This document shows, piece by piece, positions 1-47,577 of a stretch of DNA of 64,000 nucleotides (positions within the stretch are counted from its first letter, which is position 1; each line of letters opens with the position of its first letter). Under the pieces are notes generated by a model. It saw only the letters and a list, made by a program, of their open reading frames with translations, had not been told where the DNA came from and did no database searches. Location of the stretch: NCBI GenBank assembly GCA_965200665.1, contig OZ241370.1:2075709-2139708 (forward strand), in the 5' to 3' direction. Position numbers and translations under genes: made by a program. The stretch comes from Rhodopila sp. (lineage in GTDB: Bacteria; Pseudomonadota; Alphaproteobacteria; Acetobacterales; Acetobacteraceae).

Positions 1-975
1 CGCGAACGGTTCGCGGACCGGGTGATGCAGGCACCCCCCGCAAGCCTGGTGAACGACGCCGGCGACAATCTGGACCCGGACCGGATCTGGGCCACGCTGA
101 TGAAGAACGAAAAGCCGGGCGGCCATGGCGAACGCTCTGTGGCGGTCGGCACGATCGACATGGCGGTGTGGGACGCGGTGGCGAAGATCGCCGGCAAGCC
201 GTTGTTCCGGCTGCTGCCTGAACGCCATGGGCGCGAAGCCAACCCGCGCGTCTTCGTCTATGCCGCGGGTGGCTACTACTATCCTGGCAAAGGTGTCGAG
301 CAGCTGCGGGCAGAAATGCGCAGCTACCTTGATCGCGGCTATAGCGTTGTCAAGATGAAGATCGGCAACGGCATCGCGGAGGATCGGCCGCGCATCGAAG
401 GCGTCCTGGCCGAGCTGGACGGCCGGGCACAGCTTGCGGTGGACGCGAACGGCCGGCTGTCGCTGGAAGATGCCATCGCCTATGCTAGGATGCTGCGAGA
501 CTATCCGTTGTTCTGGTATGAAGAAGCCGGTGACCCCCTGGACTTCGCGCTGCAGGCGGCACTGGCTGAATTCTATCCCGGCGCCATGGCGACTGGGGAA
601 AATCTGTTCAGCCACCAGGATGCGAGGAACCTGCTGCGTTACGGCGGGATGCGGCCGGACCGTGACTGGCTGCAGTTCGACTGCGCCCTGTCCTATGGGC
701 TGTGCGAATATCAGCGCACGCTCGCCGTGCTGCAGGTCGCCGGCTGGTCGCCGTCGCGCTGCATCCCCCACGGAGGCCACCAGATGTCACTCAACATCGC
801 CGCGGGGCTGGGCCTGGGCGGCAACGAAAGCTATCCCGATCTCTTCCAGCCCTATGGTGGCTTCCCGGATGGCGTACGGGTCGAGGACAGCCATATCATC
901 ATGCCGGACCTGCCTGGCATCGGCTTCGAGGGCAAGTCGGACCTGATCAAGGTCATGCGTGAACTGGCGGAATGA
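1..975 (+). CDS. tarD: D-tartrate dehydratase (mandelate racemase/enolase superfamily), 5' end outside the window
   Basis: Frame open from base 1 (RERFADRVMQ...). Motifs NEKPGGHGERSVAVGTIDMAVWD, KMKIG, DANG, WYEE, ATGEN and PHGGH match my recollection of the Bradyrhizobium D-tartrate dehydratase. Confidence 0.8.
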   Translation, partial: RERFADRVMQAPPASLVNDAGDNLDPDRIWATLMKNEKPGGHGERSVAVGTIDMAVWDAVAKIAGKPLFRLLPERHGREANPRVFVYAAGGYYYPGKGVEQLRAEMRSYLDRGYSVVKMKIGNGIAEDRPRIEGVLAELDGRAQLAVDANGRLSLEDAIAYARMLRDYPLFWYEEAGDPLDFALQAALAEFYPGAMATGENLFSHQDARNLLRYGGMRPDRDWLQFDCALSYGLCEYQRTLAVLQVAGWSPSRCIPHGGHQMSLNIAAGLGLGGNESYPDLFQPYGGFPDGVRVEDSHIIMPDLPGIGFEGKSDLIKVMRELAE

Positions 976-35501: not shown

Positions 35502-37310
35502 CTGTCGCGTATCCGTCTGCTTTCAGAATCCACGGTTAACCGCATAGCCGCCGGCGAGGTCATCGAGCGCCCCGCCGCGGCCACCAAGGAACTTGTCGAA
35601 AACGCGCTTGATGCCGGCGCCACCCGCATCACCGTCAGCCTCGACGGCGGTGGCATCGACCGGCTGGAAGTCACCGACAACGGCATCGGCATGTCGGCCA
35701 ATGAGCTGGCGCTGTGCATCCAGCGCCACGCCACGTCCAAGCTCACTGACGACAATCTGGTCCGCATCACCACCCTCGGCTTCCGCGGCGAGGCCCTGCC
35801 GTCGATCGGCGCCGCCGCCCGGCTGCAGATCATCTCCCGCCCGCAATCGGCCGACCCAAGGGGGGATCATGCCAGCGTCATCACCGTCGAAGGCGGCCAC
35901 GTTACCGCTGTCGCCCCCACATCCGGCGCCCCCGGCACGCGTGTCGTGGTCCGCGACCTGTTCTTCGCCACCCCCGCCCGGCGGAAATTCCTGAAATCAC
36001 CGCGGATCGAAGCCGAACACGCCGAGGCTGTCGTCCGCCGCCTTGCGCTCTCCGCCCCACAGGTCGCCTTTCGCCTTGACCTCGACGGCCGCACGATCTT
36101 CGAAGCCCCCGTCCAATCGCGCATCGATCGGGTCGCCGCCCTGCTCGGCAGCGAGGCCGCCCAGGTCATGCTGCCGGTCAATGAGGAACGCACCACGCAG
36201 GGCATCGTGCTGCGGATCGGCGGCTACGTCTGCTCGCCCGCCGTCACCCGCGCCACCCCCATTGCCCAAACCCTGATCGTAAACAATCGCCCGGTGGCAG
36301 ACCCGGTCCTGCGCACTGCCGTCAAGGTCGCCTATCGCGACGTTATCGCCGCCGGCCGGCACGCCATCGCGGCCCTGTATCTGGATGTTCCGCCCGACGA
36401 GCTGGACGTGAACGTCCATCCTGCGAAAACCGAACTCCGCTTCCGCGACGCCGGCGCCGTCCGATCCCTGGTGATCGGCTCGATCCGCCGCACTCTCGGC
36501 GTCGGAACCGGCCAGGTGGTCCCGATGCCCGGCCTGAATCCCGCTGCAGCGACCTATGCGTGGGGGCAGTCGCCGCGACCCCGCTACCCCATCGCGCCAC
36601 GGCCGCCGCCAATGGCGCTGTCGCCGGGCGCCGCCGCGCCTGCCTACCGCGGCATGGCCGAGGCCCAGCTTCCCCTGCTCGGCGCCCCCGCCGCGAGGCG
36701 GATCGCAGCGCTTGACCCGGACCCCGGCCATCCGTTGGGTGCCCCGGTCGCTCAAGTACTGGACACCTACATCATCGCGGTCGCCGCCGATGGGTCGCTG
36801 GTGCTGGTCGATCAGCACGCCGCGCATGAACGCCTGACCCATGAAGCCATCCGCGAGCAGCTGGTCGGCGGCGGGGTTCGCAGCCAGCCCATGCTGATGC
36901 CGGCGGTTATCGACCTTCCGTCAACCGACGTGGCGAGACTGGTCGCCCGCGGCGAAGATCTCGCCCGGCTGGGCCTGGAACTGGAAGAATTCGGCCCTGG
37001 CGCCATCCTTGTCCGCGCCCTGCCCGCCGTCCTCGGTGCCACTGAGGTCGCCCCGCTGCTGCGTGACCTTGCCGACGAATTCGCCGACATGGATGAGCAG
37101 ACGGTGCTGTCCGCCCGCCTCGACGCCGTTATCGCCCGCATGGCCTGCCACGGCAGCATCCGCGCCGGCCGCAAACTAGGGGAAGCCGAAATGAGCGCCC
37201 TGCTGCGCCGCATGGAGGATACGCCGCGCGCGGCCACCTGCAGCCACGGACGCCCGACAGTCCTGAAACTTTCGAAGCCCGACATTGAGAAGATGTTCGG
37301 CAGGCGCTGA
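35502..37310 (+). CDS. mutL: DNA mismatch repair protein MutL, apparent CTG start
   Basis: The conserved N-terminus IRLLSESTVNRIAAGEVIERPA...KELVENALDA...DNGIG is in frame upstream of the first ATG (35691). Also DQHAAHER, ACHGSIRAG, CSHGRP. Confidence 0.93.
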   Translation: MSRIRLLSESTVNRIAAGEVIERPAAATKELVENALDAGATRITVSLDGGGIDRLEVTDNGIGMSANELALCIQRHATSKLTDDNLVRITTLGFRGEALPSIGAAARLQIISRPQSADPRGDHASVITVEGGHVTAVAPTSGAPGTRVVVRDLFFATPARRKFLKSPRIEAEHAEAVVRRLALSAPQVAFRLDLDGRTIFEAPVQSRIDRVAALLGSEAAQVMLPVNEERTTQGIVLRIGGYVCSPAVTRATPIAQTLIVNNRPVADPVLRTAVKVAYRDVIAAGRHAIAALYLDVPPDELDVNVHPAKTELRFRDAGAVRSLVIGSIRRTLGVGTGQVVPMPGLNPAAATYAWGQSPRPRYPIAPRPPPMALSPGAAAPAYRGMAEAQLPLLGAPAARRIAALDPDPGHPLGAPVAQVLDTYIIAVAADGSLVLVDQHAAHERLTHEAIREQLVGGGVRSQPMLMPAVIDLPSTDVARLVARGEDLARLGLELEEFGPGAILVRALPAVLGATEVAPLLRDLADEFADMDEQTVLSARLDAVIARMACHGSIRAGRKLGEAEMSALLRRMEDTPRAATCSHGRPTVLKLSKPDIEKMFGRR

Positions 37311-37426
37311 TCCGGCTGAAGCTGGAGTTTCGGGGACAGAAGTGTCCGGGGCAAGGGTGTCCGGCGCATGCCGGTGGCGCAGAATGACTGCGCCACCTTC
37401 AACCTGTCGCTCAGGCCCGCAGATGA

Positions 37427-37876
37427 TCAGGCACCAAGGCGGCCGTTGGCCCGAAGCCGCAACCGATCGCTCAGCACCGCGATCATCGCGGCCTCCTGTG
37501 GCCACAGCACCCCGTCCGCCATCGCCACGCTCTGCGCCGCCCGAAGCGCAAGCACCGCGCCGGGCCGGTCCGCAAGCACCGACATCGCGCTCAAGGCATC
37601 GTTCATATGCTCAAGCTCGAAATCCGCGGCCGCTTCGACCGTCCGGTCAAATGTGCCGACCGTCTTTCTGCGCCCGGACCGCGCCAGAATACCCTGCTCG
37701 CGCAGGAACCTCAGCAACGCCCGGCGCTCCTCCGACGTCGCCCGCCCATCGGCGCAGGCAACAAGTGAGGCAGCGGTGACAATCGCGGTGATCGTGTCGT
37801 CACCGTAGTGATGAACAACATCGGGATCGCTTCGCTCCGAGCGGGGCTGGGCAGGCAGACGATTGGGGTACGGCAT
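37427..37876 (-). CDS. TerB-like (tellurite-resistance/co-chaperone fold) protein
   Basis: AASLVACADGRATSEER...VAMADGVLWPQE; AAGGAG RBS before ATG 37876. Confidence 0.75.
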   Translation of the reverse strand: MPYPNRLPAQPRSERSDPDVVHHYGDDTITAIVTAASLVACADGRATSEERRALLRFLREQGILARSGRRKTVGTFDRTVEAAADFELEHMNDALSAMSVLADRPGAVLALRAAQSVAMADGVLWPQEAAMIAVLSDRLRLRANGRLGA

Positions 37877-37959
37877 ACAACACTCCTTCAATGACGAAAG
37901 GCGTGCGCAGCTTCGGTTAAAACGGGAGCACCAATGCGGGCCACGGATCAACCGGCGCT

Positions 37960-38030
37960 TGATGCGCACGGTGATCCGACATCGCAAGGTTGGCTCAACC
38001 AAGTGTTCGGTTGGCGTCCTGCCAGAGGGG
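37960..38030 (-). ncRNA. Candidate structured cis-regulatory leader RNA upstream of the TerB-like gene
   Basis: CCAACC...GGTTG...CCAACC arrangement allows two alternative hairpins; no family match established. Confidence 0.3.
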
Positions 38031-38162
38031 CCCGGATCGTCTTGAAGATTACTGTGGTGTTGCTGAACCGCGATTCCAAGCCCGGCCCCGCTAATTTTCG
38101 TGTGCGCGCCGGGCAGGTTGCCATCCGGCAGCCCACCACGGACACGCAAAGCCGGGTTGAAC

Positions 38163-38960
38163 CTACGCAGCAGCGACCCGCGGCCGCCGGGCATAGCGCG
38201 TCAGCGCATCCGCATCCGTTGGCAGGATCGGCGCGAAATCCGTGTGCGCAATCCACTCCGCCCGCGTCGGCTTGCGGATGTAGTTGGAAACCGCATTCAG
38301 CGTCAGGTAAACGATCTTTCGCGGATACGGCGTGATGTTCCCGGCTGATCCATGCACCAGGTTGCCATGGAACAGCAGCAACCCGCCGGGCTTCCCCGTC
38401 GGCGCCACAATCCCACCGGCCTCAACCAGTTCCGTCACCGTCTTCTCGTCCAGCGTCCACAGCGGGTACGATGTGGTGGTTACGTCATGGCCCGCCGCCA
38501 GAACGCCGTGCGTATGGCTCCGAGGCACCAGCATCAGCGGTCCGTTGATCGGCATCACCTCGTCCAGGAACACCGCGATGTTCATCGCCCGTGGCTCCGG
38601 CATCCCGTCGTCACGCGCCCAGGTGCCGTAATCCTGGTGCCACTGCCAGACATCACCAGTAAACGACGCTTTCGCGTTGATCTTGTACTGGTGCATATAC
38701 ACTTGTTCGCCAAATAACTGCTCAACCGGCCCGATCATCTCCGGATGGCGCGCCAGCAACCCATGCGCCTCATTATATAAATGCGCGGCGAACGCCGTCC
38801 GCGGCGCACCCGATTTCTCGCGCCAAACCTCCGGCCGTTCCTGGCGATAGATCTCGATCGCCTCGGATTTCAGGCTATCGACCTCTTCCTGAGAGAACGT
38901 CTCCGGCAGGAACAGATAACCTTCTTCGTGGAATTGACGCACTTGTTCTTCGGTCAACAT
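38163..38960 (-). CDS. PhyH/EctD-like Fe(II)/2-oxoglutarate dioxygenase
   Basis: WQWHQDYGTW (HxD) ... FHGNLVHGS (distal His), then PR. The EctD signature HSDFETWH is not present. Confidence 0.85.
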   Translation of the reverse strand: MLTEEQVRQFHEEGYLFLPETFSQEEVDSLKSEAIEIYRQERPEVWREKSGAPRTAFAAHLYNEAHGLLARHPEMIGPVEQLFGEQVYMHQYKINAKASFTGDVWQWHQDYGTWARDDGMPEPRAMNIAVFLDEVMPINGPLMLVPRSHTHGVLAAGHDVTTTSYPLWTLDEKTVTELVEAGGIVAPTGKPGGLLLFHGNLVHGSAGNITPYPRKIVYLTLNAVSNYIRKPTRAEWIAHTDFAPILPTDADALTRYARRPRVAAA

Positions 38961-38974
38961 GCCGGGTTCCTCCT

Positions 38975-39646
38975 TCAGGCAGCTTTCAAATCTAATTCCG
39001 CGGCAGTCAGCCGCGCGGCCACAGCGGCATGATCCCGCGCCGCGGCCTCGGCCGCAGCCGGATTCCCATCGAGCACACAGCGCAGGATCGCGGTGTGCTC
39101 GATCCGCCAGACCGTGGCGGCATAGTCCGGGGCACGCAGCACCATCGCCATCGACCGCATCAGATGCGGCCACAGCGGACCCGTCATCTCCTCGATCGCC
39201 GGATTCCCCGACAACCTGTACAAACCGCGATGAAACTCCGTATCCGCTCGCACCAGGACCGGGATCGGCGTTCCTGCGTCAAATTCCGCGCCCGCCTGCA
39301 GCAGCCGTTGCAACCCGTCGACGACGGCGGCATCACGGGGATGCGAAGCCGCCAGCCGAGCCGCAAGCCCGTCGACGACCTCGCGCACCTGGTACAACTG
39401 CATCACGCGTTTCGGGTCCAAGGGCACCACCCGCAGACCCTTGCGGCCAACATCCTCCACCAGCCCCTGGCGCTTCAGCAGATGCAGCGCGTGACTGACC
39501 GGCTGGCGCGATATCCCAAGCGTTTCAGCCAGCTCGGCCTGTCGGATCCTCTGGCCCGGCAACAACGTCCCGTCGGCGATCGCAGCCAGCATCTGCTGGT
39601 AGGTCCGCTCGATCAGGTTCGGAGTTGCCGCCAACACATCCAACAT
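38975..39646 (-). CDS. GntR (FCD) family regulator
   Basis: LLPGQRIRQAELAETLGISRQPVSHAL..L..QGLV; DTEFH; EHTAIL. Confidence 0.9.
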   Translation of the reverse strand: MLDVLAATPNLIERTYQQMLAAIADGTLLPGQRIRQAELAETLGISRQPVSHALHLLKRQGLVEDVGRKGLRVVPLDPKRVMQLYQVREVVDGLAARLAASHPRDAAVVDGLQRLLQAGAEFDAGTPIPVLVRADTEFHRGLYRLSGNPAIEEMTGPLWPHLMRSMAMVLRAPDYAATVWRIEHTAILRCVLDGNPAAAEAAARDHAAVAARLTAAELDLKAA

Positions 39647-39662
39647 GGAATTCCGAATTCCA
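39646..39662. promoter_or_regulatory. Perfect 17-bp palindrome TGGAATTC-C-GAATTCCA, probable GntR operator
   Basis: Overlaps the first base of the GntR start codon. Confidence 0.6.
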
Positions 39663-40377
39663 AAACTACAAACGTTGAGCTACGCCCTGTCGGCCGCGCC
39701 GTCAAGCGCGTTCAAGCCTAGTTCATGTCCCGGAACATCATCTACGCCATGCTTACAAGGTTGGTCAGCCGACCATGCCAACCATCATACCCGAACCGCT
39801 GCCCGAACCTGCGGCCGGGAATCATCGACAGACTTCGATCATCCGCAACCAAACCGTCTGCCGGGCGCCTGTTGTCAGGCAAGCTTTGGATGTAGCGCGG
39901 GACCGGGATGAAGATAGTTGGCCTCCGGACCACAAAACGGCGACGTCCTGAGGCATCCTTGCACAGCGCAACGACTTCCGCATTGGCTGCCACCCGGAAA
40001 GATGTCGGGTCGTAAATTTATAACGATCTGACATAATCCGTTATGCCGCCTCATCTTTTTCGTGAACTGGTGCTCAAAATCCATAAATTGACATTGCCGG
40101 AAGAAGACCCGGCCAATCAAAAATTACTGCAGCGGCGTAAAATGTGCGCGGCGGCCCCTACAGTATAAAATTATTGAGCACCGGGTTGATCGCCATCTTT
40201 TTTGAACCGGTAGCACAACTATATTGCCAGTTCCCAACTCTGGTTTCGATCGGTAGCATTTCGTGGCAAACGACCGAGAACAGATCTCAAAGTGAACCAG
40301 CCCCAATATAGTTTCCTTGCTGCACATCGATTGGCAGCTTCGCCACTGGAGACAGGTGAAGTGAGGGAGCTGATACA

Positions 40378-42096
40378 ATGATGAGTATTATTGGCTTTCT
40401 GACCGACCCGCCCGGGCTGACGCCGCATGGGTTTTGTCTGCTGTGGGAACCCGGGTTGATCTGGCTGTTCGCCATTGCCGATATCGCAACCGGCATCAGC
40501 TATTTTTCGATCCCGCTCGTCCTCGCAAAAGTCGCGCGACGCCGTCACGACCTCATTTTCAAGCCTGTGTTCTGGATGTTCGCCGCGTTTATCTTGCTCT
40601 GCGGCACCGGCCACTGGATCGACCTGCTGACACTTTGGGTGCCGACATATACACTGCAGGCCGTCGTCAAGATGGCAACGGCGATCGCTTCCGTGGTAAC
40701 CGCGGTCGCGCTCTGGCCCCTGCTTCCCCGCATATTGGCACTGCCCTCACCTTCGGAAATGCGCAAGGCTCACGACGCAATAACCAACCTTGCCAATGAA
40801 CGCGGGCAATCGCTTGAAGCGTTGCGGCGGATGAACGAAACCCTGGAAATCCGCGTGGCTGAACGAACCACCACACTGACGCAACTTGTCGACGGTTTGC
40901 GCAGGGAGGCGCGGGATCGCGAAAGAGTCGAAGAGGCGCTGCGGCAAAGCCAGAAAATGGAGGCTGTCGGCCAGCTCACCGGTGGCATAGCACACGACTT
41001 CAACAATATGCTGGCCGGCATATCGGGCAGCCTGGAATTGATTCGAAGCCGTACAGCCCAGGGTCGCACGAACGAACTGGAACGCTATATTGAAGCCGCA
41101 CTGACCTCAACCGCTCGGGCCGCCGCTTTGACCCAACGGTTGCTGGCTTTTTCCCGGCGCCAGACGCTTGATCCGAAGCCCGCGGACATGAACCGGATGG
41201 TTCTCAGTATGGAAGAATTATTCAAGAATACAGTCGGCCCTGCCATTCACATCGAAACGAACCTGGCCGGCGGCTTGTGGCCGACCCTGTGCGATACGAA
41301 CCAGCTGGAAAATGCCTTGCTCAACCTGGTCATCAATGCACGCGATGCCATGCCTATCGGCGGATCGCTGGTGATCGAGACTGCGAATGCCGCTGTCCAG
41401 TCGCAAAGCAACCAGCCTGGTAACCAGCCATCCGAACTCGCGCCCGGCGACTACGTCAAACTGATGGTGGCCGACACCGGCGTCGGCATGACAAAGACCG
41501 TACTCGCACGCGCCTTCGATCCCTTCTTTACTACCAAACCGCTGGGTCAGGGCACCGGCCTCGGCCTCTCCATGGTCTACGGATTTGTTCAGCAATCGGG
41601 CGGCCGCGTCTTTCTGCGAAGCACGGAGGGGCAGGGAACCTCAGTTGCAATCTATCTTCCGCGCCATAGCCAGTTGCCAGCGGTCGAGTCACAGCTTGGC
41701 GCGGCGCTCGTCGCGCAGACCGGGCGGTCGAACGCGGTGGTACTGGTCGTTGAGGACGAACCGGATGTTCGTATGGTCGTCGTCGACACGCTCGAGGACA
41801 TCGGCCTGACCGTGCTGGAAGCCGTTGACGGTCCGTCCGGAATGAAGATCGTCGACTCCAAGGTCCGGATCGACCTTCTGGTCAGCGATGTCGGGTTGCC
41901 GGGTGGCATGAATGGCCGCCAGCTCGCCGATGCCGCACGGCAGCGTCAATGCGGATTAAAGGTATTGTTCATAACGGGCTACTCGGAAGGCTTCCTGTTC
42001 GGCAGCGGCCTGGCGGACGAGGGCATGCAGGTCCTGACGAAGCCATTTTCAATGAGCACGTTCGCAAAGAAAGTACAGGCCATCATCAATGCTTGA
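40378..42096 (+). CDS. Hybrid sensor kinase: ETR1-type ethylene-binding TM domain + HisKA + HATPase + REC
   Basis: DIATGISYFSIP and FILLCGTGH in the TM domain; GGIAHDFNNML (H-box), TTKPLGQGTGLGLS, REC with DVGLP and KPF. Confidence 0.9.
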   Translation: MMSIIGFLTDPPGLTPHGFCLLWEPGLIWLFAIADIATGISYFSIPLVLAKVARRRHDLIFKPVFWMFAAFILLCGTGHWIDLLTLWVPTYTLQAVVKMATAIASVVTAVALWPLLPRILALPSPSEMRKAHDAITNLANERGQSLEALRRMNETLEIRVAERTTTLTQLVDGLRREARDRERVEEALRQSQKMEAVGQLTGGIAHDFNNMLAGISGSLELIRSRTAQGRTNELERYIEAALTSTARAAALTQRLLAFSRRQTLDPKPADMNRMVLSMEELFKNTVGPAIHIETNLAGGLWPTLCDTNQLENALLNLVINARDAMPIGGSLVIETANAAVQSQSNQPGNQPSELAPGDYVKLMVADTGVGMTKTVLARAFDPFFTTKPLGQGTGLGLSMVYGFVQQSGGRVFLRSTEGQGTSVAIYLPRHSQLPAVESQLGAALVAQTGRSNAVVLVVEDEPDVRMVVVDTLEDIGLTVLEAVDGPSGMKIVDSKVRIDLLVSDVGLPGGMNGRQLADAARQRQCGLKVLFITGYSEGFLFGSGLADEGMQVLTKPFSMSTFAKKVQAIINA

Positions 42097-42214
42097 ACTG
42101 CTGACCCAACACGAGCGGTCGGTACTGGACCTATATGAAGTGACCAAATTCAATCCAACGTGATTTCTGCGGCATCTGGTTGGCAAGCGCGAAAACGCAG
42201 GTCAGTGTTCGCAG

Positions 42215-43438
42215 ATGAAACGTATCCTCATACTGGGTGCCGGGTTTGCCGGATTATGGGCCGCAGCCGGGGCCGCACGTGCGCGCCATGCGTTTGGCGC
42301 CGAGAGCGGGCAAATCGAGATCCTGGTGCTCGACAAGCAGTCATACCATTCCATCCGGGTCAGGAACTATGAGGTCGAACTGTCCGACACGCTGATTGCA
42401 CTGAGGACGGTCTTCGACCCGATCAACGTCCGCTACGCTCAGGCTGACATCACCGGCATCGACGTCGCAGCCAGGACCATCGGGTTTACCGCAAACGGCA
42501 CACATGAAACCGTCAACTACGACCGGTTGATCTGCGCGCTGGGCAGCGAGCTTGTCCGGCCACCCATCCCGGGCCTTGCCGATTACGGTTTTGATGTCGA
42601 CACATTCTCCGCCGCAGAGCGGCTCGGTCGGCACATCGCCTCGCTACCCCTCCGGACACCGATCGGCGGCCAGCATACGGTCCTGGTGGTGGGCGCCGGG
42701 CTGACAGGAATCGAGGTCGCTGCCGAAATGCCAGCCCGACTTCGCACGGTCTTCGGTCAAGCCTCCGGCGCCCCAGATACGCGGGTCATCCTGGTTGACC
42801 GCGGTCCGTCGATCGCATCCGCGATGGGCGGCGCACAGCCGGTCATCCGGCAGGCGCTGGAATCACTCGGGGTCGAAACCATCGCAGGCGTGTCGCTGGC
42901 CAGCATGAACGAGTCCGGTGCCACATTGACGACAGGTCAGCATATACCGGCCACAACCGTAATCTGGTGCGCCGGCATGCGGGCCCCGCCGCTCGCCGCG
43001 CAGATCTCCAAGGATGTGGATAAAACCGGTCGCCTGCCGGTCGACACTTTCTTGCAGGTCAAAGGCGTTCCCGCCGTCTTCGCCGCCGGCGATGTTGCCA
43101 ACCTGGCAGTGGATGACAGCCATAGCTCCGTCATGTCGTGTCAGCATAGCCGGCCAATGGGCCGCTTCGCCGGCCACAACGCTGTCTGCGACCTGCTGGG
43201 CAAGCCGATGCTCCCGCTCCAGATCCCCTGGTACACGACGATTCTCGATCTTGGGGCATGGGGCGCAGTCTATACCGAGGGCTGGGATCGCCATCTGGTC
43301 GCCAAAGGGGCGGACGCCAAACGTACCAAGGAAATCATCAACCGCCAGCGTATCTATCCACCTGTGTCCGGTGATCGACAGGCAATCTTCGATGCCGCCG
43401 CCCCCGTGGTTCAGGCACCCCCGCAACGCTTTACCTGA
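42215..43438 (+). CDS. NAD(P)/FAD-dependent oxidoreductase (type II NADH dehydrogenase-like)
   Basis: ILILGAGFAG, VVGAGLTGIEVAAE, FAAGD. Confidence 0.85.
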   Translation: MKRILILGAGFAGLWAAAGAARARHAFGAESGQIEILVLDKQSYHSIRVRNYEVELSDTLIALRTVFDPINVRYAQADITGIDVAARTIGFTANGTHETVNYDRLICALGSELVRPPIPGLADYGFDVDTFSAAERLGRHIASLPLRTPIGGQHTVLVVGAGLTGIEVAAEMPARLRTVFGQASGAPDTRVILVDRGPSIASAMGGAQPVIRQALESLGVETIAGVSLASMNESGATLTTGQHIPATTVIWCAGMRAPPLAAQISKDVDKTGRLPVDTFLQVKGVPAVFAAGDVANLAVDDSHSSVMSCQHSRPMGRFAGHNAVCDLLGKPMLPLQIPWYTTILDLGAWGAVYTEGWDRHLVAKGADAKRTKEIINRQRIYPPVSGDRQAIFDAAAPVVQAPPQRFT

Positions 43439-43487
43439 CCGTCACGTCCGCCAGACGCCGGCATCCATCTAGAAGAAAGGCCTTTTG

Positions 43488-44144
43488 ATGACCCTGAAGA
43501 TTTACGGCGTCCTGCGCTCCCGCGCGACCCGGCCAATCTGGATGGCGAAGGAACTGGGTATCCCGTTTGAGCACGTGCCGGTCATTCAGCACCACCGGCT
43601 GCCTGACCCCGCCGCCGCCGATGCGCCGCTGAACACCCGCTCCCCACAATTTCGCGCGGTGAACCCCGGTGGTCTGGTGCCTACCATCGACGATGATGGC
43701 TTCGTGCTTCATGAGTCGCTCGCCATTACGCTTTACTTGGCGCGCAGGCATGGCGGCCCGTTGGCGCCTCGCGACGTGCGGGAGGAAGCCTTGATGACGA
43801 TGTGGACGTTGTGGGCTGCCACGGAGTGCGAAGCCCCGGCGCTGCGCGCCATGCAGAATGCGACCGCCGTCAAGACACGGGATGCGGCGGTTTACCAGGA
43901 AAGCGTCACCGCCCTCCGGTCCAAATTCGCAGTTCTGGACAAGGCGTTGGGCCAAGGTGGCGGGTTCCTGGTTGGCCGGCGCTTCACTGTAGCCGATCTG
44001 AATGTCGCTGAGATCGTCCGCTATGCCCAAGCTGCGTCTGAACTGTTCGCCGATACACCGAACGTGCAGGGCTGGATTCGTGCGTGCCAATCGCGACCGG
44101 CCTTCACAGCCATGATGACCGAGCGCGATGCCGAGCCGCTGTAG
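43488..44144 (+). CDS. Glutathione S-transferase family protein
   Basis: SRATRPIW, NPGGLVPTI, ESLAI, FTVADL. Confidence 0.9.
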   Translation: MTLKIYGVLRSRATRPIWMAKELGIPFEHVPVIQHHRLPDPAAADAPLNTRSPQFRAVNPGGLVPTIDDDGFVLHESLAITLYLARRHGGPLAPRDVREEALMTMWTLWAATECEAPALRAMQNATAVKTRDAAVYQESVTALRSKFAVLDKALGQGGGFLVGRRFTVADLNVAEIVRYAQAASELFADTPNVQGWIRACQSRPAFTAMMTERDAEPL

Positions 44145-44257
44145 GATTCGTTGCTCGGCCGTTTTGCCAACGCCAAGCATCCAAGAAATAAATCTTGCGC
44201 ATCAAGGAAAAATAGCCTAAAACGCTCAGACGTGAACCCCCACACCCGAGGCGTCCA

Positions 44258-44833
44258 ATGCTCTCGTCCGCCCTGCCACAAACCTTGTTGGATACCATCC
44301 TGAGCCGCCTCGGCATCCTCTTTCTCGAGGCCGCCATGGGCAGCGAGACCGCCGCGCGTCAGGCCGCGGCCGCCGCTCTCGCCGATTATGGCCCGGAAAC
44401 CGGAACCGAGCTTCGTCTCGCGGCCAATATCATCAGCTTCAGCCTGCATGCGCTGGAGGCACTCGGGCAGGCGGCCCACCCGGATCTGTCGCTGGCAAAG
44501 ACACTACGCCTTCGTGGCAGCGCCGTCAGCCTCAGTCGCGAGTCCCATAAAGCCGAACGTCGGTTGCTCGACCGTCAGCAGGCTCGCCGCGCCGGCCAAT
44601 CGGGGGCGGAACCGGAACCGGAAGCGGAACCCGCACCGAAACCCGAACAAGCCGAACCCGTACCGGCGATAGCCGAAAAAGCCGTTGCGTTAATTGAAGC
44701 CACCAGGCAGCAGGCCCAGTCTGTCCCGATCTGGTCCAAGTCATACCAGCAGCGCGAGGCTGCGCGCCGCATCACCGAAAACCTCAAGAAAAACGCAGCC
44801 ACCTACGCTGCTGCCCAGCCCTCGGCCGCCTGA
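44258..44833 (+). CDS. Hypothetical helical protein with Pro/Glu-rich linker
   Basis: Clean 191-aa ORF with genome-typical codon use, convergent with der. Confidence 0.65.
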   Translation: MLSSALPQTLLDTILSRLGILFLEAAMGSETAARQAAAAALADYGPETGTELRLAANIISFSLHALEALGQAAHPDLSLAKTLRLRGSAVSLSRESHKAERRLLDRQQARRAGQSGAEPEPEAEPAPKPEQAEPVPAIAEKAVALIEATRQQAQSVPIWSKSYQQREAARRITENLKKNAATYAAAQPSAA

Positions 44834-44853
44834 CCTGCCGCTCCCGGGTTTCT

Positions 44854-46194
44854 TCAACCATCATCCGCAAAGGGATTTTTCGTCCCGCGGAACTGCAGCC
44901 GGATCGGCGTGCCCGGCAGCTTGAACGTGTCCCGCAGGCCGTTCACCAGATAGCGGGAGTAATCCTCCGGCGTCTGCTCCGCGCGAGTACCGAACACCAC
45001 AAAAGTCGGCGGCCTGGCCTTCGCCTGTGTCACATAGCGCAGCTTTAGCCGCCGCCCGCTGACCAGCGGCGCCTGATGGGCCTCCAGCGCGTGCTCGAAC
45101 CACCGGTTCAGCTCCCCCGTGGGCACTCGCTTGTTCCAGACCTCATGCGCTGCCCGCACTGCCGGCAGCAGCCGCTCTACCCCGGCGCCGGTCAGTGCCG
45201 ACAGGGTTACCACCGGGATGCCCTTCATCTGCGCCAGGCTGTCCTCCAGCCGCTCCATGATCGCCTTGCGCGTGCCATTCCGGTCGGGGACCGCGTCCCA
45301 TTTGTTCAAGGCGACGATGCAGGCCCGCCCTTCACGTTCGACCAGCCGCGCGATCTGCAGGTCCTGGTCATGGATGCCCTCAACGGCATCAAGGCACAGC
45401 ACCACGACCTCGGCCATCTTCAGCGCTTCAATCGCGGAGCTGACGGACATTTTCTCCAGCGGCGCCTCGATCCGCGCCCGCCGCCGCAGCCCGGCGGTAT
45501 CGACGATTTCCACCGCCCGCCCCTGATCGTCGTTCAGCACGACGGCAATCGCATCCCGGGTCAGGCCGGGTTCCGGCCCCGTAATCTGCCGATCCTCACC
45601 CAGCAGCCGGTTCAGCAGCGTCGACTTTCCGGCGTTGGGCCGGCCGACGATCGCCAGCTTCAGGGGGCGATCCTCAAGCGACGGGTCCGCCAACTCGGCC
45701 GCGGGCAGCCGGTCGGCGATCTCCGACATCAGGTCGGCCACGCCCTCGCCGTGTTCGGCGGACACGCCCACCGGATCGCCCAGACCAAGGCCATAGGCAT
45801 CCAGAATGGACGACGTCGCCGTTCGGCCTTCCGCCTTGTTCGCCACCAGCAGCACTGGTTTGCCCTGCCGCCGCAGCCACTGGGCAAAATGTTCGTCGGC
45901 CGGCGTCACCCCGGCACGGGCATCCAGCACGAACAGCACCAGGTCGGCCATCGAAACGGCGCTAGCCGACCCCGCGCGCATTCGCCCGGCCAGCGTATCG
46001 GGTGCGGCTTCCTCCAGCCCTGCTGTATCGATCAATCGGACCATCCGCCCGCGCAACTGCGCCTCGGCTTCCTTGCGGTCGCGGGTCACCCCCGGCGTGT
46101 CGGCCACCAGCGCGATCCGCCGCCCCGCCAGCCGGTTGAACAACGTGGATTTGCCAACATTCGGCCGCCCGGCGATGACGACGATTGGCAACAT
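44854..46194 (-). CDS. der: Ribosome biogenesis GTPase Der/EngA
   Basis: Two G domains: GRPNVGKS/DTAG/NKAE and GRPNAGKS/DTAG/NKWD; KH-like tail. Confidence 0.97.
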   Translation of the reverse strand: MLPIVVIAGRPNVGKSTLFNRLAGRRIALVADTPGVTRDRKEAEAQLRGRMVRLIDTAGLEEAAPDTLAGRMRAGSASAVSMADLVLFVLDARAGVTPADEHFAQWLRRQGKPVLLVANKAEGRTATSSILDAYGLGLGDPVGVSAEHGEGVADLMSEIADRLPAAELADPSLEDRPLKLAIVGRPNAGKSTLLNRLLGEDRQITGPEPGLTRDAIAVVLNDDQGRAVEIVDTAGLRRRARIEAPLEKMSVSSAIEALKMAEVVVLCLDAVEGIHDQDLQIARLVEREGRACIVALNKWDAVPDRNGTRKAIMERLEDSLAQMKGIPVVTLSALTGAGVERLLPAVRAAHEVWNKRVPTGELNRWFEHALEAHQAPLVSGRRLKLRYVTQAKARPPTFVVFGTRAEQTPEDYSRYLVNGLRDTFKLPGTPIRLQFRGTKNPFADDG

Positions 46195-46200
46195 TTCAAA

Positions 46201-47577
46201 CTACCTCAGCGCCATCAGGCGCCCATCATTGGTAACGATCAGGACAGTGCCGGCCGCCACCACCGGAGAGGTCGGCGCGGCAGCCTCGGACAGCGAGATA
46301 TGGCCCAGGATTTCGCCCGTATAAGGGCTGATCGACAGCGCGTCTTCGCTGAGGCCGGTGACGATCAGCCGGTCACTGACGAGCAGCGGCCCATACCAGG
46401 TCAGCGTGTTCTTGCGCTTGTTCGGGTCCGACCAGCGCGGCAGCTGGGTGATCCAGGAGATCCGCCCGTCGCCGATGTTGATGGCGGCGATCTGCTGTTC
46501 AGCCGAGATGATGAACATCCAGTCGCCGGCAATATAGGGCGTGTCCTCGCCGGCCACCTGGCGTTCCCACACGCGCCGACCGGTCGGCACGTCGTTGCAC
46601 ACCAGCAGGCCACCCATGCTGATCGCATACACCAGTCCGTTGACGATAACCGGCAGGCCGCGGATCGACAGGAAATCCGCGATCGACGCCCGTCCCTCCG
46701 ACGCACCCAGTCCGTCGGTCCAGACCACGCTGCCGCTGTCGGCGCGCAGGCAGGCCAGCTCCCCCGATCCGAAACCCGCGACCACCAATCCCCGCCAGTA
46801 GGCCGCGGCCGGCTGTCCAAGCATCGAGGTAACCGGTTCGGCGGCCTGGTGAGTCCACAGCAGCCGGCCGTCCGCGGCGGTAAACGCCAGCAGATGATTT
46901 TGGATCGTTGTGACGAACACCCGCCCATCGGCTATCATTGGCGCCGACCGGGCTGGAGCCCCCAGGTCCGTCCGCCACTTCTCCTTGCCGGACGCGGCAT
47001 CCATCGCCACCAGCGAGAACAACCCATTGACGGCATACACCGTGGTGCCATCCGTGCCGATCCCGGCGCCCACATTGGTGCTGTCGTCCATGTCCTTGGG
47101 CTTGGTATCCTCCCGCCACAGCCGCTTCCCATCGGCCATCGAGAACGCCGACGCCACCGCGTTGGAGTCCATCGTGTAGACCATGCCATCCTGCACCACG
47201 GGCTGCGCCATGATCACCTGGCGATAGCCGCCACCCGCGCCGATGTTCGACTTCCAGACTTCGGTCAGCTTGTCGTTCGCCTCCAGGTGCCCCATCAGGT
47301 GGGCCGGATTGCCGCCGGCCTGCGGCCAGTTGGCGTTACGAACCGCCGGCGGCAACACCACCTTCGGCGCACCGTCGTCCACGACCAGGCCACGCCGGTC
47401 CGCGAACACATTCTCCCGCTTGCCCGGCAGCGCGGCTTTCTTGTCGCCGAACCAGTCGTCGAACAACGAGCAGCCGCTCAGCGCGAGCGGCGCCAGCAAC
47501 GCGGTCCGACGGGCCAGCTTGGTCTTCGAAACAGCATCCAGACTCACGCCAAGGCTTCCCCGTGGGTTGGTGGTCAT
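46201..47577 (-). CDS. bamB: BamB-like PQQ-repeat beta-propeller lipoprotein
   Basis: Lipobox LSGC, repeated G...W propeller blades, conserved yfgM-bamB-der order, ATGA overlap. Confidence 0.8.
   Translation of the reverse strand: MTTNPRGSLGVSLDAVSKTKLARRTALLAPLALSGCSLFDDWFGDKKAALPGKRENVFADRRGLVVDDGAPKVVLPPAVRNANWPQAGGNPAHLMGHLEANDKLTEVWKSNIGAGGGYRQVIMAQPVVQDGMVYTMDSNAVASAFSMADGKRLWREDTKPKDMDDSTNVGAGIGTDGTTVYAVNGLFSLVAMDAASGKEKWRTDLGAPARSAPMIADGRVFVTTIQNHLLAFTAADGRLLWTHQAAEPVTSMLGQPAAAYWRGLVVAGFGSGELACLRADSGSVVWTDGLGASEGRASIADFLSIRGLPVIVNGLVYAISMGGLLVCNDVPTGRRVWERQVAGEDTPYIAGDWMFIISAEQQIAAINIGDGRISWITQLPRWSDPNKRKNTLTWYGPLLVSDRLIVTGLSEDALSISPYTGEILGHISLSEAAAPTSPVVAAGTVLIVTNDGRLMALR

Follow-up and report, generated by a model that had tools for sequence, protein, structure and literature searches.

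The window, a stretch of 64,000 nucleotides, carries on its forward strand the gene for a 572-residue hybrid histidine kinase. The protein combines an N-terminal membrane domain of the ethylene-receptor (ETR1_N) type, hereafter the ethylene-binding domain (EBD), with a helical linker, a transmitter and a receiver (Table 1). Upstream of the ATG the same frame stays open for six codons only (ORF 40378-42096). An earlier note on this DNA, made from the letters alone, described a 730-bp AT-richer gap before the gene; the gap is real and measures 731 bp, with a GC content of 0.525 as compared to 0.58-0.60 in the kinase gene and 0.63-0.68 in its neighbours. Positions 39638-40394 are covered without differences by a contig of an independent lichen metagenome (100% identity across 39647..40377), and the other pieces of the locus found in that metagenome, at low depth and with gaps, are identical where matched. 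The gap presumably harbours the promoter or a regulatory region. A site scan of this segment revealed no sigma-70-like site and no convincing promoter or terminator, an Rfam search of it returned no family, and no repeat of it was found elsewhere in the 5.6-Mb genome. The idea that the gap is a mobile-element remnant was rejected. The claim that the gene stands alone holds in part only: a Pyr_redox_2 gene follows after 118 bp on the same strand, with no terminator-like site in between. Three host polyA RNA-seq runs, a library type not expected to capture bacterial mRNA, yielded zero reads on 37000-46500.

Table 1. Features of the kinase gene and its upstream region (nucleotide positions are those of the window).
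Feature	Residues	Position	Strand	Basis or remark
AT-richer intergenic region (731 bp) 5' of the gene		39647..40377	.	GC 0.525; single copy in genome
Ribosome-binding site GGGAG, 8 nt 5' of ATG		40365..40369	+	sequence reading
Whole gene, hybrid histidine kinase (EBD, helical linker with presumed S-helix, HisKA, HATPase_c, REC)	572 aa	40378..42096	+	ORF, Pfam, AlphaFold2 model
Motif G13-L-T-P-H17-G-F-C20-L-L-W23-E-P25, just before TM1		40414..40452	+	predicted periplasm-facing; outside Pfam model
ETR1_N ethylene-binding domain	27-122	40456..40743	+	Pfam PF25487, E 9.1e-33
TM1 (carries D35, Y42, I45, P46)	25-55			AlphaFold2
TM2 (carries I72, C75, H79)	62-85			AlphaFold2
TM3 (carries K98)	91-120			AlphaFold2
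Mosaic junction between EBD part and transmitter common to HAMP-type kinases	~126-147	40753..40818	+	protein and DNA similarity
Cytoplasmic helical linker, signalling-helix-like motif (L148-RRMNETLEIRVAERTTTL), continuing into DHp helix 1		40819..40968	+	P0121 likeness, AlphaFold2
HisKA (DHp), phospho-acceptor H206 in AHDFNN	198-262	40969..41163	+	Pfam E 1.3e-9
HATPase_c	306-429	41293..41664	+	Pfam E 4e-18
C-terminal receiver (REC)	455-566	41740..42075	+	Pfam Response_reg E 1.4e-16

The genes neighbouring the kinase encode GntR/FCD, PhyH, Pyr_redox_2 and GST proteins and one unassigned ORF. The earlier note had left the phosphorelay partner unassigned, rightly so, as there is no response-regulator or Hpt gene among these neighbours. 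Hpt domains occur in the genome solely inside proteins of 835-1004 residues, encoded far from the window. A tblastn comparison of all window neighbours with about 95 related loci uncovered no conserved partner, and clustering of 1,962 neighbouring ORFs gave no family present in more than 11 of 76 related loci. The gntR-der interval is not syntenic in relatives. What is conserved there is der with the genes beyond it and, separately, the phyH-gntR pair, each at different places, and no orthologous locus could be defined among relatives. The kinase gene, an orphan, belongs to the accessory genome and lies in a variable region without synteny.

A profile search with the ETR1 N-terminal domain, proposed as a check in the earlier note, matched PF25487 at model positions 2-97 of 97 with 112.8 bits, the gathering cut-off being 27. 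At the genome level the ETR1_N profile scored 117 bits and identified a single copy, against none in 14 control genomes. The three transmembrane helices are predicted with a pLDDT of about 90 (mean of the whole AlphaFold2 model, 84). No solved relative of the sensor domain exists in the PDB sequence set even at E<=10, and the matches of a fold search were confined to the kinase core. All seven residues used by ETR1 to bind ethylene (D25, Y32, I35, P36, I62, C65 and H69) have counterparts in the window protein (D35, Y42, I45, P46, I72, C75 and H79), each displaced by +10. This spacing, already read in the earlier note, is borne out by the translation, and the full-length domain match places it far beyond chance. 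The counterparts of the ETR1 Cu(I) ligand pair C65/H69, C75 and H79, are one helical turn apart on TM2. D35 and K98, in turn, correspond to the signalling pair formed by Asp in TM1 and Lys in TM3 of ETR1 (D25-K91).

Further support comes from Azospirillum brasilense Sp7, whose AzoEtr1 is a proven ethylene receptor (PLoS Genet 2025, PMC11819568); its sequence was recovered as L106:2974-4551 on plasmid ABSP7_p1 (p1) of that strain. Residues 10-145 of the two proteins align with 44% identity and zero gaps (BLASTP). AzoEtr1 keeps all seven ETR1 ethylene-binding residues, and its C75, D35, H79 and K98 correspond to ETR1 C65, D25, H69 and K91 (PMC11819568). Because the alignment is free of gaps, D35, C75, H79 and K98 of the window protein are the published equivalents of ETR1 D25, C65, H69 and K91. 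K98, previously described as lying near K91, is thus the K91 equivalent outright. The AzoEtr1[1-130] fragment shows saturable 14C-ethylene binding, and D35A and C75A mutants of AzoEtr1 fail to complement (PMC11819568). In ETR1, D25 is critical for both copper and ethylene binding, its replacement by Asn lowers affinity about 100-fold, and a polar D25-K91 bridge has been proposed (PMC10266040). Among the 120 closest homologues of the window protein, Y42, I45, P46, I72, C75 and H79 are 100% conserved and K98 is kept in 93%; position 35 is Asp in 86% and Asn in the remaining 14%. All the available sequence-level tests support a domain of the Cu(I)-type ethylene-receptor kind on an intact hybrid kinase, ligand binding being suggested by homology.

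Just ahead of TM1 the protein carries a PHGxCLLWxP motif. H17, G18, F19, C20, L21, W23 and P25 do not vary among the 120 closest homologues. AzoEtr1 has the version P16-H-G-V-C-L-F-W-R-P25, and divergent copies within the genus read PHG[FIV]CLLW.

On the cytoplasmic side, the linker is almost identical in sequence to the post-HAMP helix of P0121, 'LRRMNETLEVRVAERTATL', and contains a motif that we take to be an S-helix. In the AlphaFold2 model, the transmembrane helices are followed by this helical linker (helices 125-153 and 164-227, interrupted at 154-163 by a low-confidence break) and then by the DHp, CA and REC folds. The absence of GAF or PAS between sensor and HisKA, asserted in the earlier note, stands up: the Pfam matches are ETR1_N, HisKA, HATPase_c and REC, with no PAS, GAF or HAMP anywhere in the 572 residues even at E<=1, and only helices are predicted for residues 125-259. 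The ATPase boxes are intact (N316/N320 in the N box, D366-x-G-x-G370 in G1, F380-F384 in the F box and G392-x-G-x-G396 in G2). So are the receiver residues: acidic pocket E459/D460, phospho-acceptor D504, T533 and K555. The best solved relative of the kinase core is the CckA DHp-CA structure 5idj (fold search E 2e-17), and the receiver matches PDB entry 28tm_A at E 2e-30. Identity with CckA was considered and rejected, the CckA profiles giving 332 and 275 bits where 1000 are required, as was membership in the NCBIfam PRK13557 subfamily (383 bits, cut-off 631). With scores so far under the curated cut-offs, the window protein is not CckA and shares with it the transmitter type alone.

The two halves of the protein have different relatives. 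Sensors attached to other outputs match that of the window protein at 68-73% identity. The transmitter (residues 140-572) is 70-73% identical to HAMP-HisKA-HATPase-REC proteins, at 628 bits, and ETR1_N is carried by none of its 119 best matches; the best transmitter from any EBD-bearing protein reaches merely 51-54% identity and 395 bits. Protein likeness to the HAMP-type kinases begins at residues 126-141 and DNA likeness at about nt 40819 (codon 148). Within the genus, HAMP-type hybrid kinases (e.g., P0121, of 738 residues, G013:C84 and G060:C6) are 65-73% identical to the window protein over S-helix, HisKA, HATPase_c and REC and have 'LRRMNETLE(I/V)RVAERT' in common with it, but carry a two-TM periplasmic sensor plus HAMP where the window protein has its ethylene-binding domain. 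Judged by these protein and DNA comparisons, the gene is shown to be a mosaic, in which an EBD module takes the place of the periplasmic-sensor-plus-HAMP module of a transmitter cassette common in the genus. Public MAG records list this genus as Rhodopila. Where the HAMP-type donor family is encoded, an adjacent regulator or Hpt gene is likewise missing. The junction is evolutionarily recent and, for this reason, efficient coupling between sensor and transmitter is an assumption only. The gene has no close ortholog: the best full-length relative is 63% identical, and a similar EBD-S-helix-kinase occurs in one congener and in P0004.

The earlier note implied that such a protein is rare. The evidence does not bear this out: Pfam curates the ETR1_N-type domain as a family, over 1,400 protein clusters are homologous to it, and its direct fusion to a HisKA-REC transmitter, found in 44 of the 120 closest homologues, is one of the two main architectures of the alphaproteobacterial clade. 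Direct EBD-HisKA-HATPase-REC kinases of about 525-545 residues are encoded in Methylocystis, Methylosinus, Methylocapsa, Lichenicoccus, Rhodopila and many soil MAGs. They share with the window protein domain order, PHGFCLLW, AHDFNN, the lack of PAS or GAF and, mostly, the orphan gene setting. They differ in that their H-box lies around residue 160 rather than at H206, the window protein having an extra helix of about 45 residues with the S-helix motif, seen in just 2 of the 120 homologues; identity between the transmitters is the 51-54% given above. This is not a new kind of system; bacterial receptors of this type are common, and two are proven.

AzoEtr1 (525 residues), also an alphaproteobacterial histidine kinase with a three-helix N-terminal EBD, matches the window protein in residue and number at H17, C20, D35, Y42, I45, P46, I72, C75, H79 and K98. 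Closest though it is among the proven receptors, it has a PAS domain between sensor and kinase, an AHEMSQ H-box and no receiver, and the gene for its cognate response regulator (AzoRR) overlaps its 3' end. The window protein has instead a plain helical linker, a CckA-like AHDFNN transmitter and a fused receiver, and its gene has no regulator adjacent. ETR1 and ERS1 of Arabidopsis share with it the Pfam ETR1_N domain, the seven binding residues and the Asp-Lys pair, and ETR1 also the order of sensor, histidine kinase and receiver. However, a GAF domain separates sensor from kinase in ETR1, whose signalling runs chiefly through CTR1 and does not depend on phosphotransfer, and which has N-terminal Cys4/Cys6 disulfides where the window protein has the PHGxCLLWxP motif; the TM2-TM3 loop is three residues shorter in the latter (19 residues from H79 to K98, as against 22 from H69 to K91). 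SynEtr1 (slr1212) of Synechocystis sp. PCC 6803, likewise a bacterial EBD histidine kinase, signals by phosphotransfer (PMC11819568). Its phytochrome-like (GAF) photoreceptor domain, partner regulator slr1213 and sRNA output are all absent from the window protein.

Taken together, the data lead us to favour, with reasonable confidence, the view that the product is a membrane-bound hybrid histidine kinase sensing ethylene or a very similar small alkene. The three N-terminal helices constitute an ETR1-type ethylene-binding domain, the N-terminus being predicted outside the cell and the loop with K51 and R54-R56 inside. By analogy with ETR1 and AzoEtr1, C75 and H79 would hold Cu(I), to which ethylene would bind, and D35 in TM1 would orient or complete the copper site and bridge to K98 in TM3. 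The signal would then travel from TM3 along the continuous cytoplasmic linker (residues 123-197) into the DHp helices and alter autophosphorylation of H206. Ethylene probably lowers kinase activity, as it does in ETR1 and is predicted to do in AzoEtr1 and SynEtr1. The phosphoryl group would pass to D504 of the protein's own receiver and on to an Hpt protein or response regulator encoded elsewhere; alternatively, the receiver might act only as an internal regulator or sink.

The Cys/His metal site is the sole chemically certain feature of the sensor, and PHGFC, just outside TM1, supplies a further invariant pair of His and Cys. One might thus imagine a sensor of copper or redox status rather than of a gas, in which the kinase is switched when C75/H79 gain Cu(I), perhaps by handover from H17/C20, or lose it. 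The good representation of the family in copper-dependent methanotrophs (Methylocystis, Methylosinus and Methylocapsa) would fit this scheme. We regard it as unlikely: Y42, I45, P46 and I72, needed for ethylene binding yet not for copper ligation, are invariant as well, AzoEtr1 binds ethylene saturably with the same PHGxC motif, and no copper-homeostasis gene adjoins the kinase.

The chemistry of Cu(I) with olefins is not confined to ethylene; ETR1, for one, gives weak responses to other olefins and to CO. The site could therefore serve another small pi-ligand (propylene, isoprene, an alkyne, CO or an isocyanide), with ethylene at most a weak agonist. The sensor is just 44% identical to that of AzoEtr1, and the low-affinity Asn35 (affinity: PMC10266040) found in 14% of close homologues suggests that ligand kinetics are tuned within the family. 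The window protein, however, has the high-affinity Asp35/Lys98 pair with all seven ETR1 ethylene-binding residues, and both bacterial receptors assayed to date, AzoEtr1 and SynEtr1, bind ethylene (PMC11819568), making this alternative as improbable as the preceding one. Least likely of all is that the gene is a recent recombination product and not (yet) a working receptor, poorly coupled or not expressed, as its mosaic junction at residues ~126-147, its orphan position, in a region of lower GC and no synteny, after a long AT-rich gap lacking a recognisable promoter, its want of a close ortholog and the zero reads in polyA libraries (not of a type expected to capture bacterial mRNA) might suggest; against this, the frame runs unbroken through 572 codons and all catalytic and ligand-site motifs are kept, the matching pieces in the independent lichen metagenome (low depth, with gaps) are identical, the junction falls within an unbroken helical linker, a place at which natural swaps of sensors are as a rule tolerated, and a similar EBD-S-helix-kinase exists in the congener and in P0004.

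If the protein is an ethylene receptor, its habitat may indicate the source of the signal. The strain is found in lichen metagenomes too, which contain the gene sequence, and the genome encodes a true ACC deaminase (553 bits, cut-off 392). Lichen partners give off ethylene and ACC, more so upon rehydration (PMC10952756). Since lichens emit ethylene and the bacterium has ACC deaminase, host-derived ethylene is the likely cue; the tie between lichen habitat, ACC deaminase and receptor is circumstantial, and the test of co-occurrence between ACC deaminase and EBD leaves phylogeny and genome size uncorrected.

The window protein leaves the general picture of bacterial ethylene receptors unchanged. 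What is new is its mosaic make-up, its orphan accessory setting, the lichen and ACC deaminase context and the invariant PHGxCLLWxP motif. As bacterial ethylene perception has been experimentally shown in two species only, each well-defined candidate widens the field. The protein combines the complete high-affinity set (Asp35/Lys98) with a minimal architecture free of PAS and GAF and so offers a simple construct for studying how a Cu(I)/ethylene site couples to a kinase through a plain helical linker. Being a natural sensor swap, it comes with ready-made controls for coupling studies in the HAMP-driven, 70-73% identical transmitters of its congeners. Its origin in a lichen-associated bacterium with ACC deaminase also suggests that ethylene may serve as a signal linking lichen partners to their bacteria, a question with hardly any molecular data. 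More tentatively, and with real doubt, one may picture a lichen-dwelling member of the Acetobacteraceae that has recently built its own receptor and reads the ethylene bursts of the lichen on rehydration or stress, its ACC deaminase acting on the same host hormone axis and its PHGxCLLWxP motif being functional. If true, an ETR1-type sensor would have been grafted onto a kinase cassette already resident in the bacterium and driven in its relatives by HAMP or GAF sensors, and the periplasm-side motif would be a working part of bacterial receptors, in copper acquisition or covalent dimerisation.

The sensor region of the window protein belongs to the ETR1_N family (Pfam PF25487, the ethylene-binding domain or EBD) and carries the complete set of ligand-site residues. 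A profile search with the ETR1 N-terminal domain gave 112.8 bits (gathering score 27, E 9.1e-33), residues 27-122 matching model positions 2-97 of 97. Residues D35, Y42, I45, P46, I72, C75, H79 and K98 were all read in the translation as listed in an earlier note on this DNA. The gene for AzoEtr1, the proven ethylene receptor of Azospirillum brasilense, was recovered by tblastn against a plasmid collection (Azospirillum genes) as a 525-aa ORF on plasmid p1 of strain Sp7 (L106:2974-4551), whose end is overlapped by a response-regulator ORF, in agreement with the published AzoEtr1 and AzoRR (PMC11819568). BLASTP aligns residues 10-145 of the window protein with residues 10-145 of AzoEtr1 at 44% identity and with zero gaps. 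In AzoEtr1, all seven ethylene-binding residues are kept, C75, D35, H79 and K98 correspond to ETR1 C65, D25, H69 and K91, the fragment AzoEtr1[1-130] binds 14C-ethylene saturably, and the D35A and C75A variants do not complement (PMC11819568). The window protein has these residues under the same numbers; thus K98, described earlier as lying near K91, is the equivalent of this lysine. The TM2-TM3 loop is three residues shorter than in ETR1. In the plant protein, the binding of copper and of ethylene depends critically on Asp25, a natural Asn variant at this position cuts affinity about 100-fold, and an Asp25-Lys91 polar bridge has been proposed to relay the signal to helix III (PMC10266040). 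The window protein carries the high-affinity Asp/Lys combination (D35, K98); among its 120 closest homologues, position 35 is Asp in 86% and Asn in 14%, and position 98 is Lys in 93%.

The motif PHG(F/I/V)CLLWxP preceding TM1 falls outside the Pfam ETR1_N model; across the 120 closest homologues it varies no more than the copper ligands do. It also occurs in AzoEtr1 (L106:2974-4551, aa 16-25), and divergent copies keep it as PHG[FIV]CLLW. The positive-inside loop K51/R54-R56 suggests that the N-terminus lies outside the cell, so that the H17/C20 pair would face the periplasm, on the same membrane side as the predicted copper site. ETR1 uses Cys4/Cys6 for disulfide dimerisation; by analogy, one may speculate that the pair has such a role or, equally speculatively, that it takes part in copper acquisition or hand-over.

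Three TM helices are joined to an intact hybrid kinase by a purely helical connection. After ETR1_N, Pfam identifies HisKA (198-262), HATPase_c (306-429) and Response_reg (455-566); at E<=1 it finds no other domain, neither HAMP nor, as the earlier note had stated, any PAS or GAF between sensor and HisKA. An AlphaFold2 model built on 115 homologues (mean pLDDT 84.3, pTM 0.51) has three confident helices (25-55, 62-85 and 91-120), two more after TM3 (125-153 and 164-227) separated by a low-confidence break at 154-163, DHp helix 2 at 231-259, then the CA domain and the receiver. A fold search of the PDB with this model matched the DHp-CA domain of CckA (5idj, E 2e-17) and other kinase cores and gave no match for the membrane domain; the PDB sequence set contains no ETR1_N-type sensor. 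The kinase motifs (H206 in AHDFNN, N316/N320, D366-x-G-x-G370, the F box, G392-x-G-x-G396) and receiver motifs (E459/D460, D504, T533, K555) are intact. The transmitter is CckA-like; the protein fails the curated cut-offs for the CckA and PRK13557 families.

The kinase gene is of mosaic ancestry. Its sensor (aa 1-135) shares 68-73% identity with those on PAS-kinases, on GGDEF/EAL proteins and on the EBD-bearing homologue P0004, the best match within the genus reaching only 58-62%. With HAMP-HisKA-HATPase-REC proteins of 730-780 aa, the transmitter (aa 140-572) shares 70-73% identity (628 bits); same-genus relatives among them include G013:C84, G060:C6 and G008:C45. ETR1_N occurs in none of the transmitter's 119 best database matches, and even the best transmitter from an EBD-bearing protein reaches only 51-54% (395 bits). 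DNA similarity to the HAMP-kinase genes extends from about nt 40819 (codon 148) to the stop codon. The peptide starting at codon 148, LRRMNETLEIRVAERTTTL, which we take to be a signalling-helix-type motif, is nearly the same as the helix that follows HAMP in P0121, a 738-aa HAMP-type hybrid kinase of the same genus. Only 2 of the 120 closest sensor homologues, the window protein and P0004, have such a long linker. Taken together, the identities of sensor and transmitter, the DNA junction and the linker distribution indicate that an EBD module took the place of the sensor-plus-HAMP module in a kinase cassette coupled to several different sensors in the genus. The nearest full-length relative found is a 425-aa EBD-S-helix-kinase that lacks a receiver, from a Rhodopila sp. 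MAG (L116:656-1933, on G061:C45, the contig that also carries locus L038). It is 63% identical over 438 aa; Ser stands in the place of P46, which is among the seven residues for binding in ETR1, and the TM1-TM2 loop is one residue shorter. The HAMP-type kinases (P0121 and those of G008:C45 and G013:C84, loci L107 and L109) begin with a periplasmic sensor of about 215 aa with two TM helices, which is common in the genus and matches no Pfam family. Alignment of the G008 copy is split between two frames, a sign of a frameshift or an assembly error.

The earlier reading of the protein as an ethylene-type gas sensor finds support in homology, and on this basis we regard it as probably an ethylene receptor. 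As judged from ETR1, AzoEtr1 and the Synechocystis receptor SynEtr1, Cu(I) would be held at C75/H79 with D35, and the sensor would bind ethylene; the signal would reach H206 by way of the D35-K98 bridge, then TM3, then the S-helix, ethylene inhibiting the kinase, and phosphotransfer would be to D504. It seems improbable that a sensor with this predicted copper site reads copper or redox state, and just as improbable that it reads another pi-ligand. Slightly less credible still is that the gene, mosaic but with all kinase and receiver motifs in place, is a non-functional recent chimera.

Features of the kinase locus and the ACC deaminase gene
Feature	Position	Strand	Description
Kinase ORF	40378-42096	+	572 aa
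Motif G-L-T-P-H17-G-F-C20-L-L-W23-x-P25	40414-40452 (aa 13-25)	+	Invariant, directly before TM1
191-aa ORF	44258-44833	+	Ala/Glu/Pro-rich, between GST gene and der
terC RNA motif (Rfam RF03067)	37967-38043	-	43.9 bits, gathering score 39.9
TerB-domain ORF	about 37430-37849	-	
Block from kinase gene to 191-aa ORF	39650-44860		Missing from the equivalent site in congeners
ACC deaminase gene (L114)	G000:C1:4113979-4114980	-	Own genome, outside the window

The kinase start is secure, since a GGGAG site lies 8 nt 5′ of the ATG and the frame extends open only six codons further upstream. The AT-richer upstream gap, put at 730 bp in the earlier note, measures 731 bp and has a GC content of 0.525 versus 0.58-0.60 in the kinase gene and 0.63-0.68 in flanking genes. 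The statement that the gene stands alone holds only in part: a same-strand Pyr_redox_2 gene comes 118 bp after it, with no terminator-like site found in between. Contigs of one lichen metagenome match at 99-100% identity over the gap, the start of the gene and further parts; the locus is therefore no assembly artefact. The neighbours (GntR/FCD, PhyH, a TerB-like gene, Pyr_redox_2, GST and the unassigned 191-aa ORF) include none common to related loci, and the only Hpt domains of the genome are parts of large proteins away from the window; the kinase gene is in this sense an orphan. In congeners, conservation is limited to der and the genes beyond (80-82% DNA identity) and to phyH-gntR (about 78%); the two lie on different contigs or far apart, and the segment at 39.65-44.86 kb is non-syntenic. 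This unlinked arrangement, together with the absence of the block, indicates a variable chromosome region and marks the kinase gene as accessory. The 191-aa ORF matches no Pfam family and has no counterpart in the related loci examined. The terC RNA motif lies about 120 nt 5′ of the TerB-domain ORF, not of a terC gene.

The architecture, which had appeared striking, proved ordinary for the clade. A search with residues 1-140 alone matched 1,411 protein clusters at E<=0.001. The best 120 of these all have PF25487. In 44 of them the sensor runs straight into a kinase of the AHDFNN type, with its H-box before residue 170; 52 contain further domains, mostly PAS, and 22 differ in output (GGDEF/EAL, other kinase types). 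Relatives are encoded at 419 loci of species-representative genomes, of which the best 80 belong to Acetobacteraceae (Belnapia, Rhodopila, Lichenicoccus, Humitalea, Roseomonas) and to Methylocystis, Methylosinus and Methylocapsa, with many soil, bog and moss MAGs. About half of 76 parsed loci encode direct EBD-HK-REC proteins of 525-545 aa, and 12 of 24 species of the window's own genus have at least one ETR1_N gene. Across the three methanotroph genera, direct EBD-HisKA-REC kinases occur widely (L032, L033, L043, L058, L061, L067, L069, L073 and L074). These methanotrophs need copper, and their methane monooxygenases oxidise ethylene too; a literature search found no paper discussing EBD kinases in copper-dependent methanotrophs.

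The exact sequence occurs in sequencing runs of an organism for which polyA RNA-seq also exists, a sign of a eukaryotic host; of the sampled words, 58% and 41% recur in runs labelled "lichen metagenome". The mycobionts and photobionts of lichens give off ethylene and ACC, and ethylene release from thalli rises on hydration and under metal stress (PMC10952756). The organism's own ACC deaminase is a bona fide member of TIGR01274 (553 bits, cut-off 392); control genomes gave none above cut-off. Across 61 species of the genus, 10 have both ACC deaminase and EBD genes, 3 ACC deaminase only, 17 EBD only and 31 neither, a co-occurrence above expectation (odds ratio 6.1, Fisher p = 0.011) in a test that ignores phylogeny and genome size, EBD-positive genomes being about 0.9 Mb larger; the link is suggestive only. 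The lichen context of the gene is interesting but circumstantial. To a family already catalogued and partly characterised, the window protein adds one member, with the minor peculiarity of an S-helix linker and a swapped transmitter.
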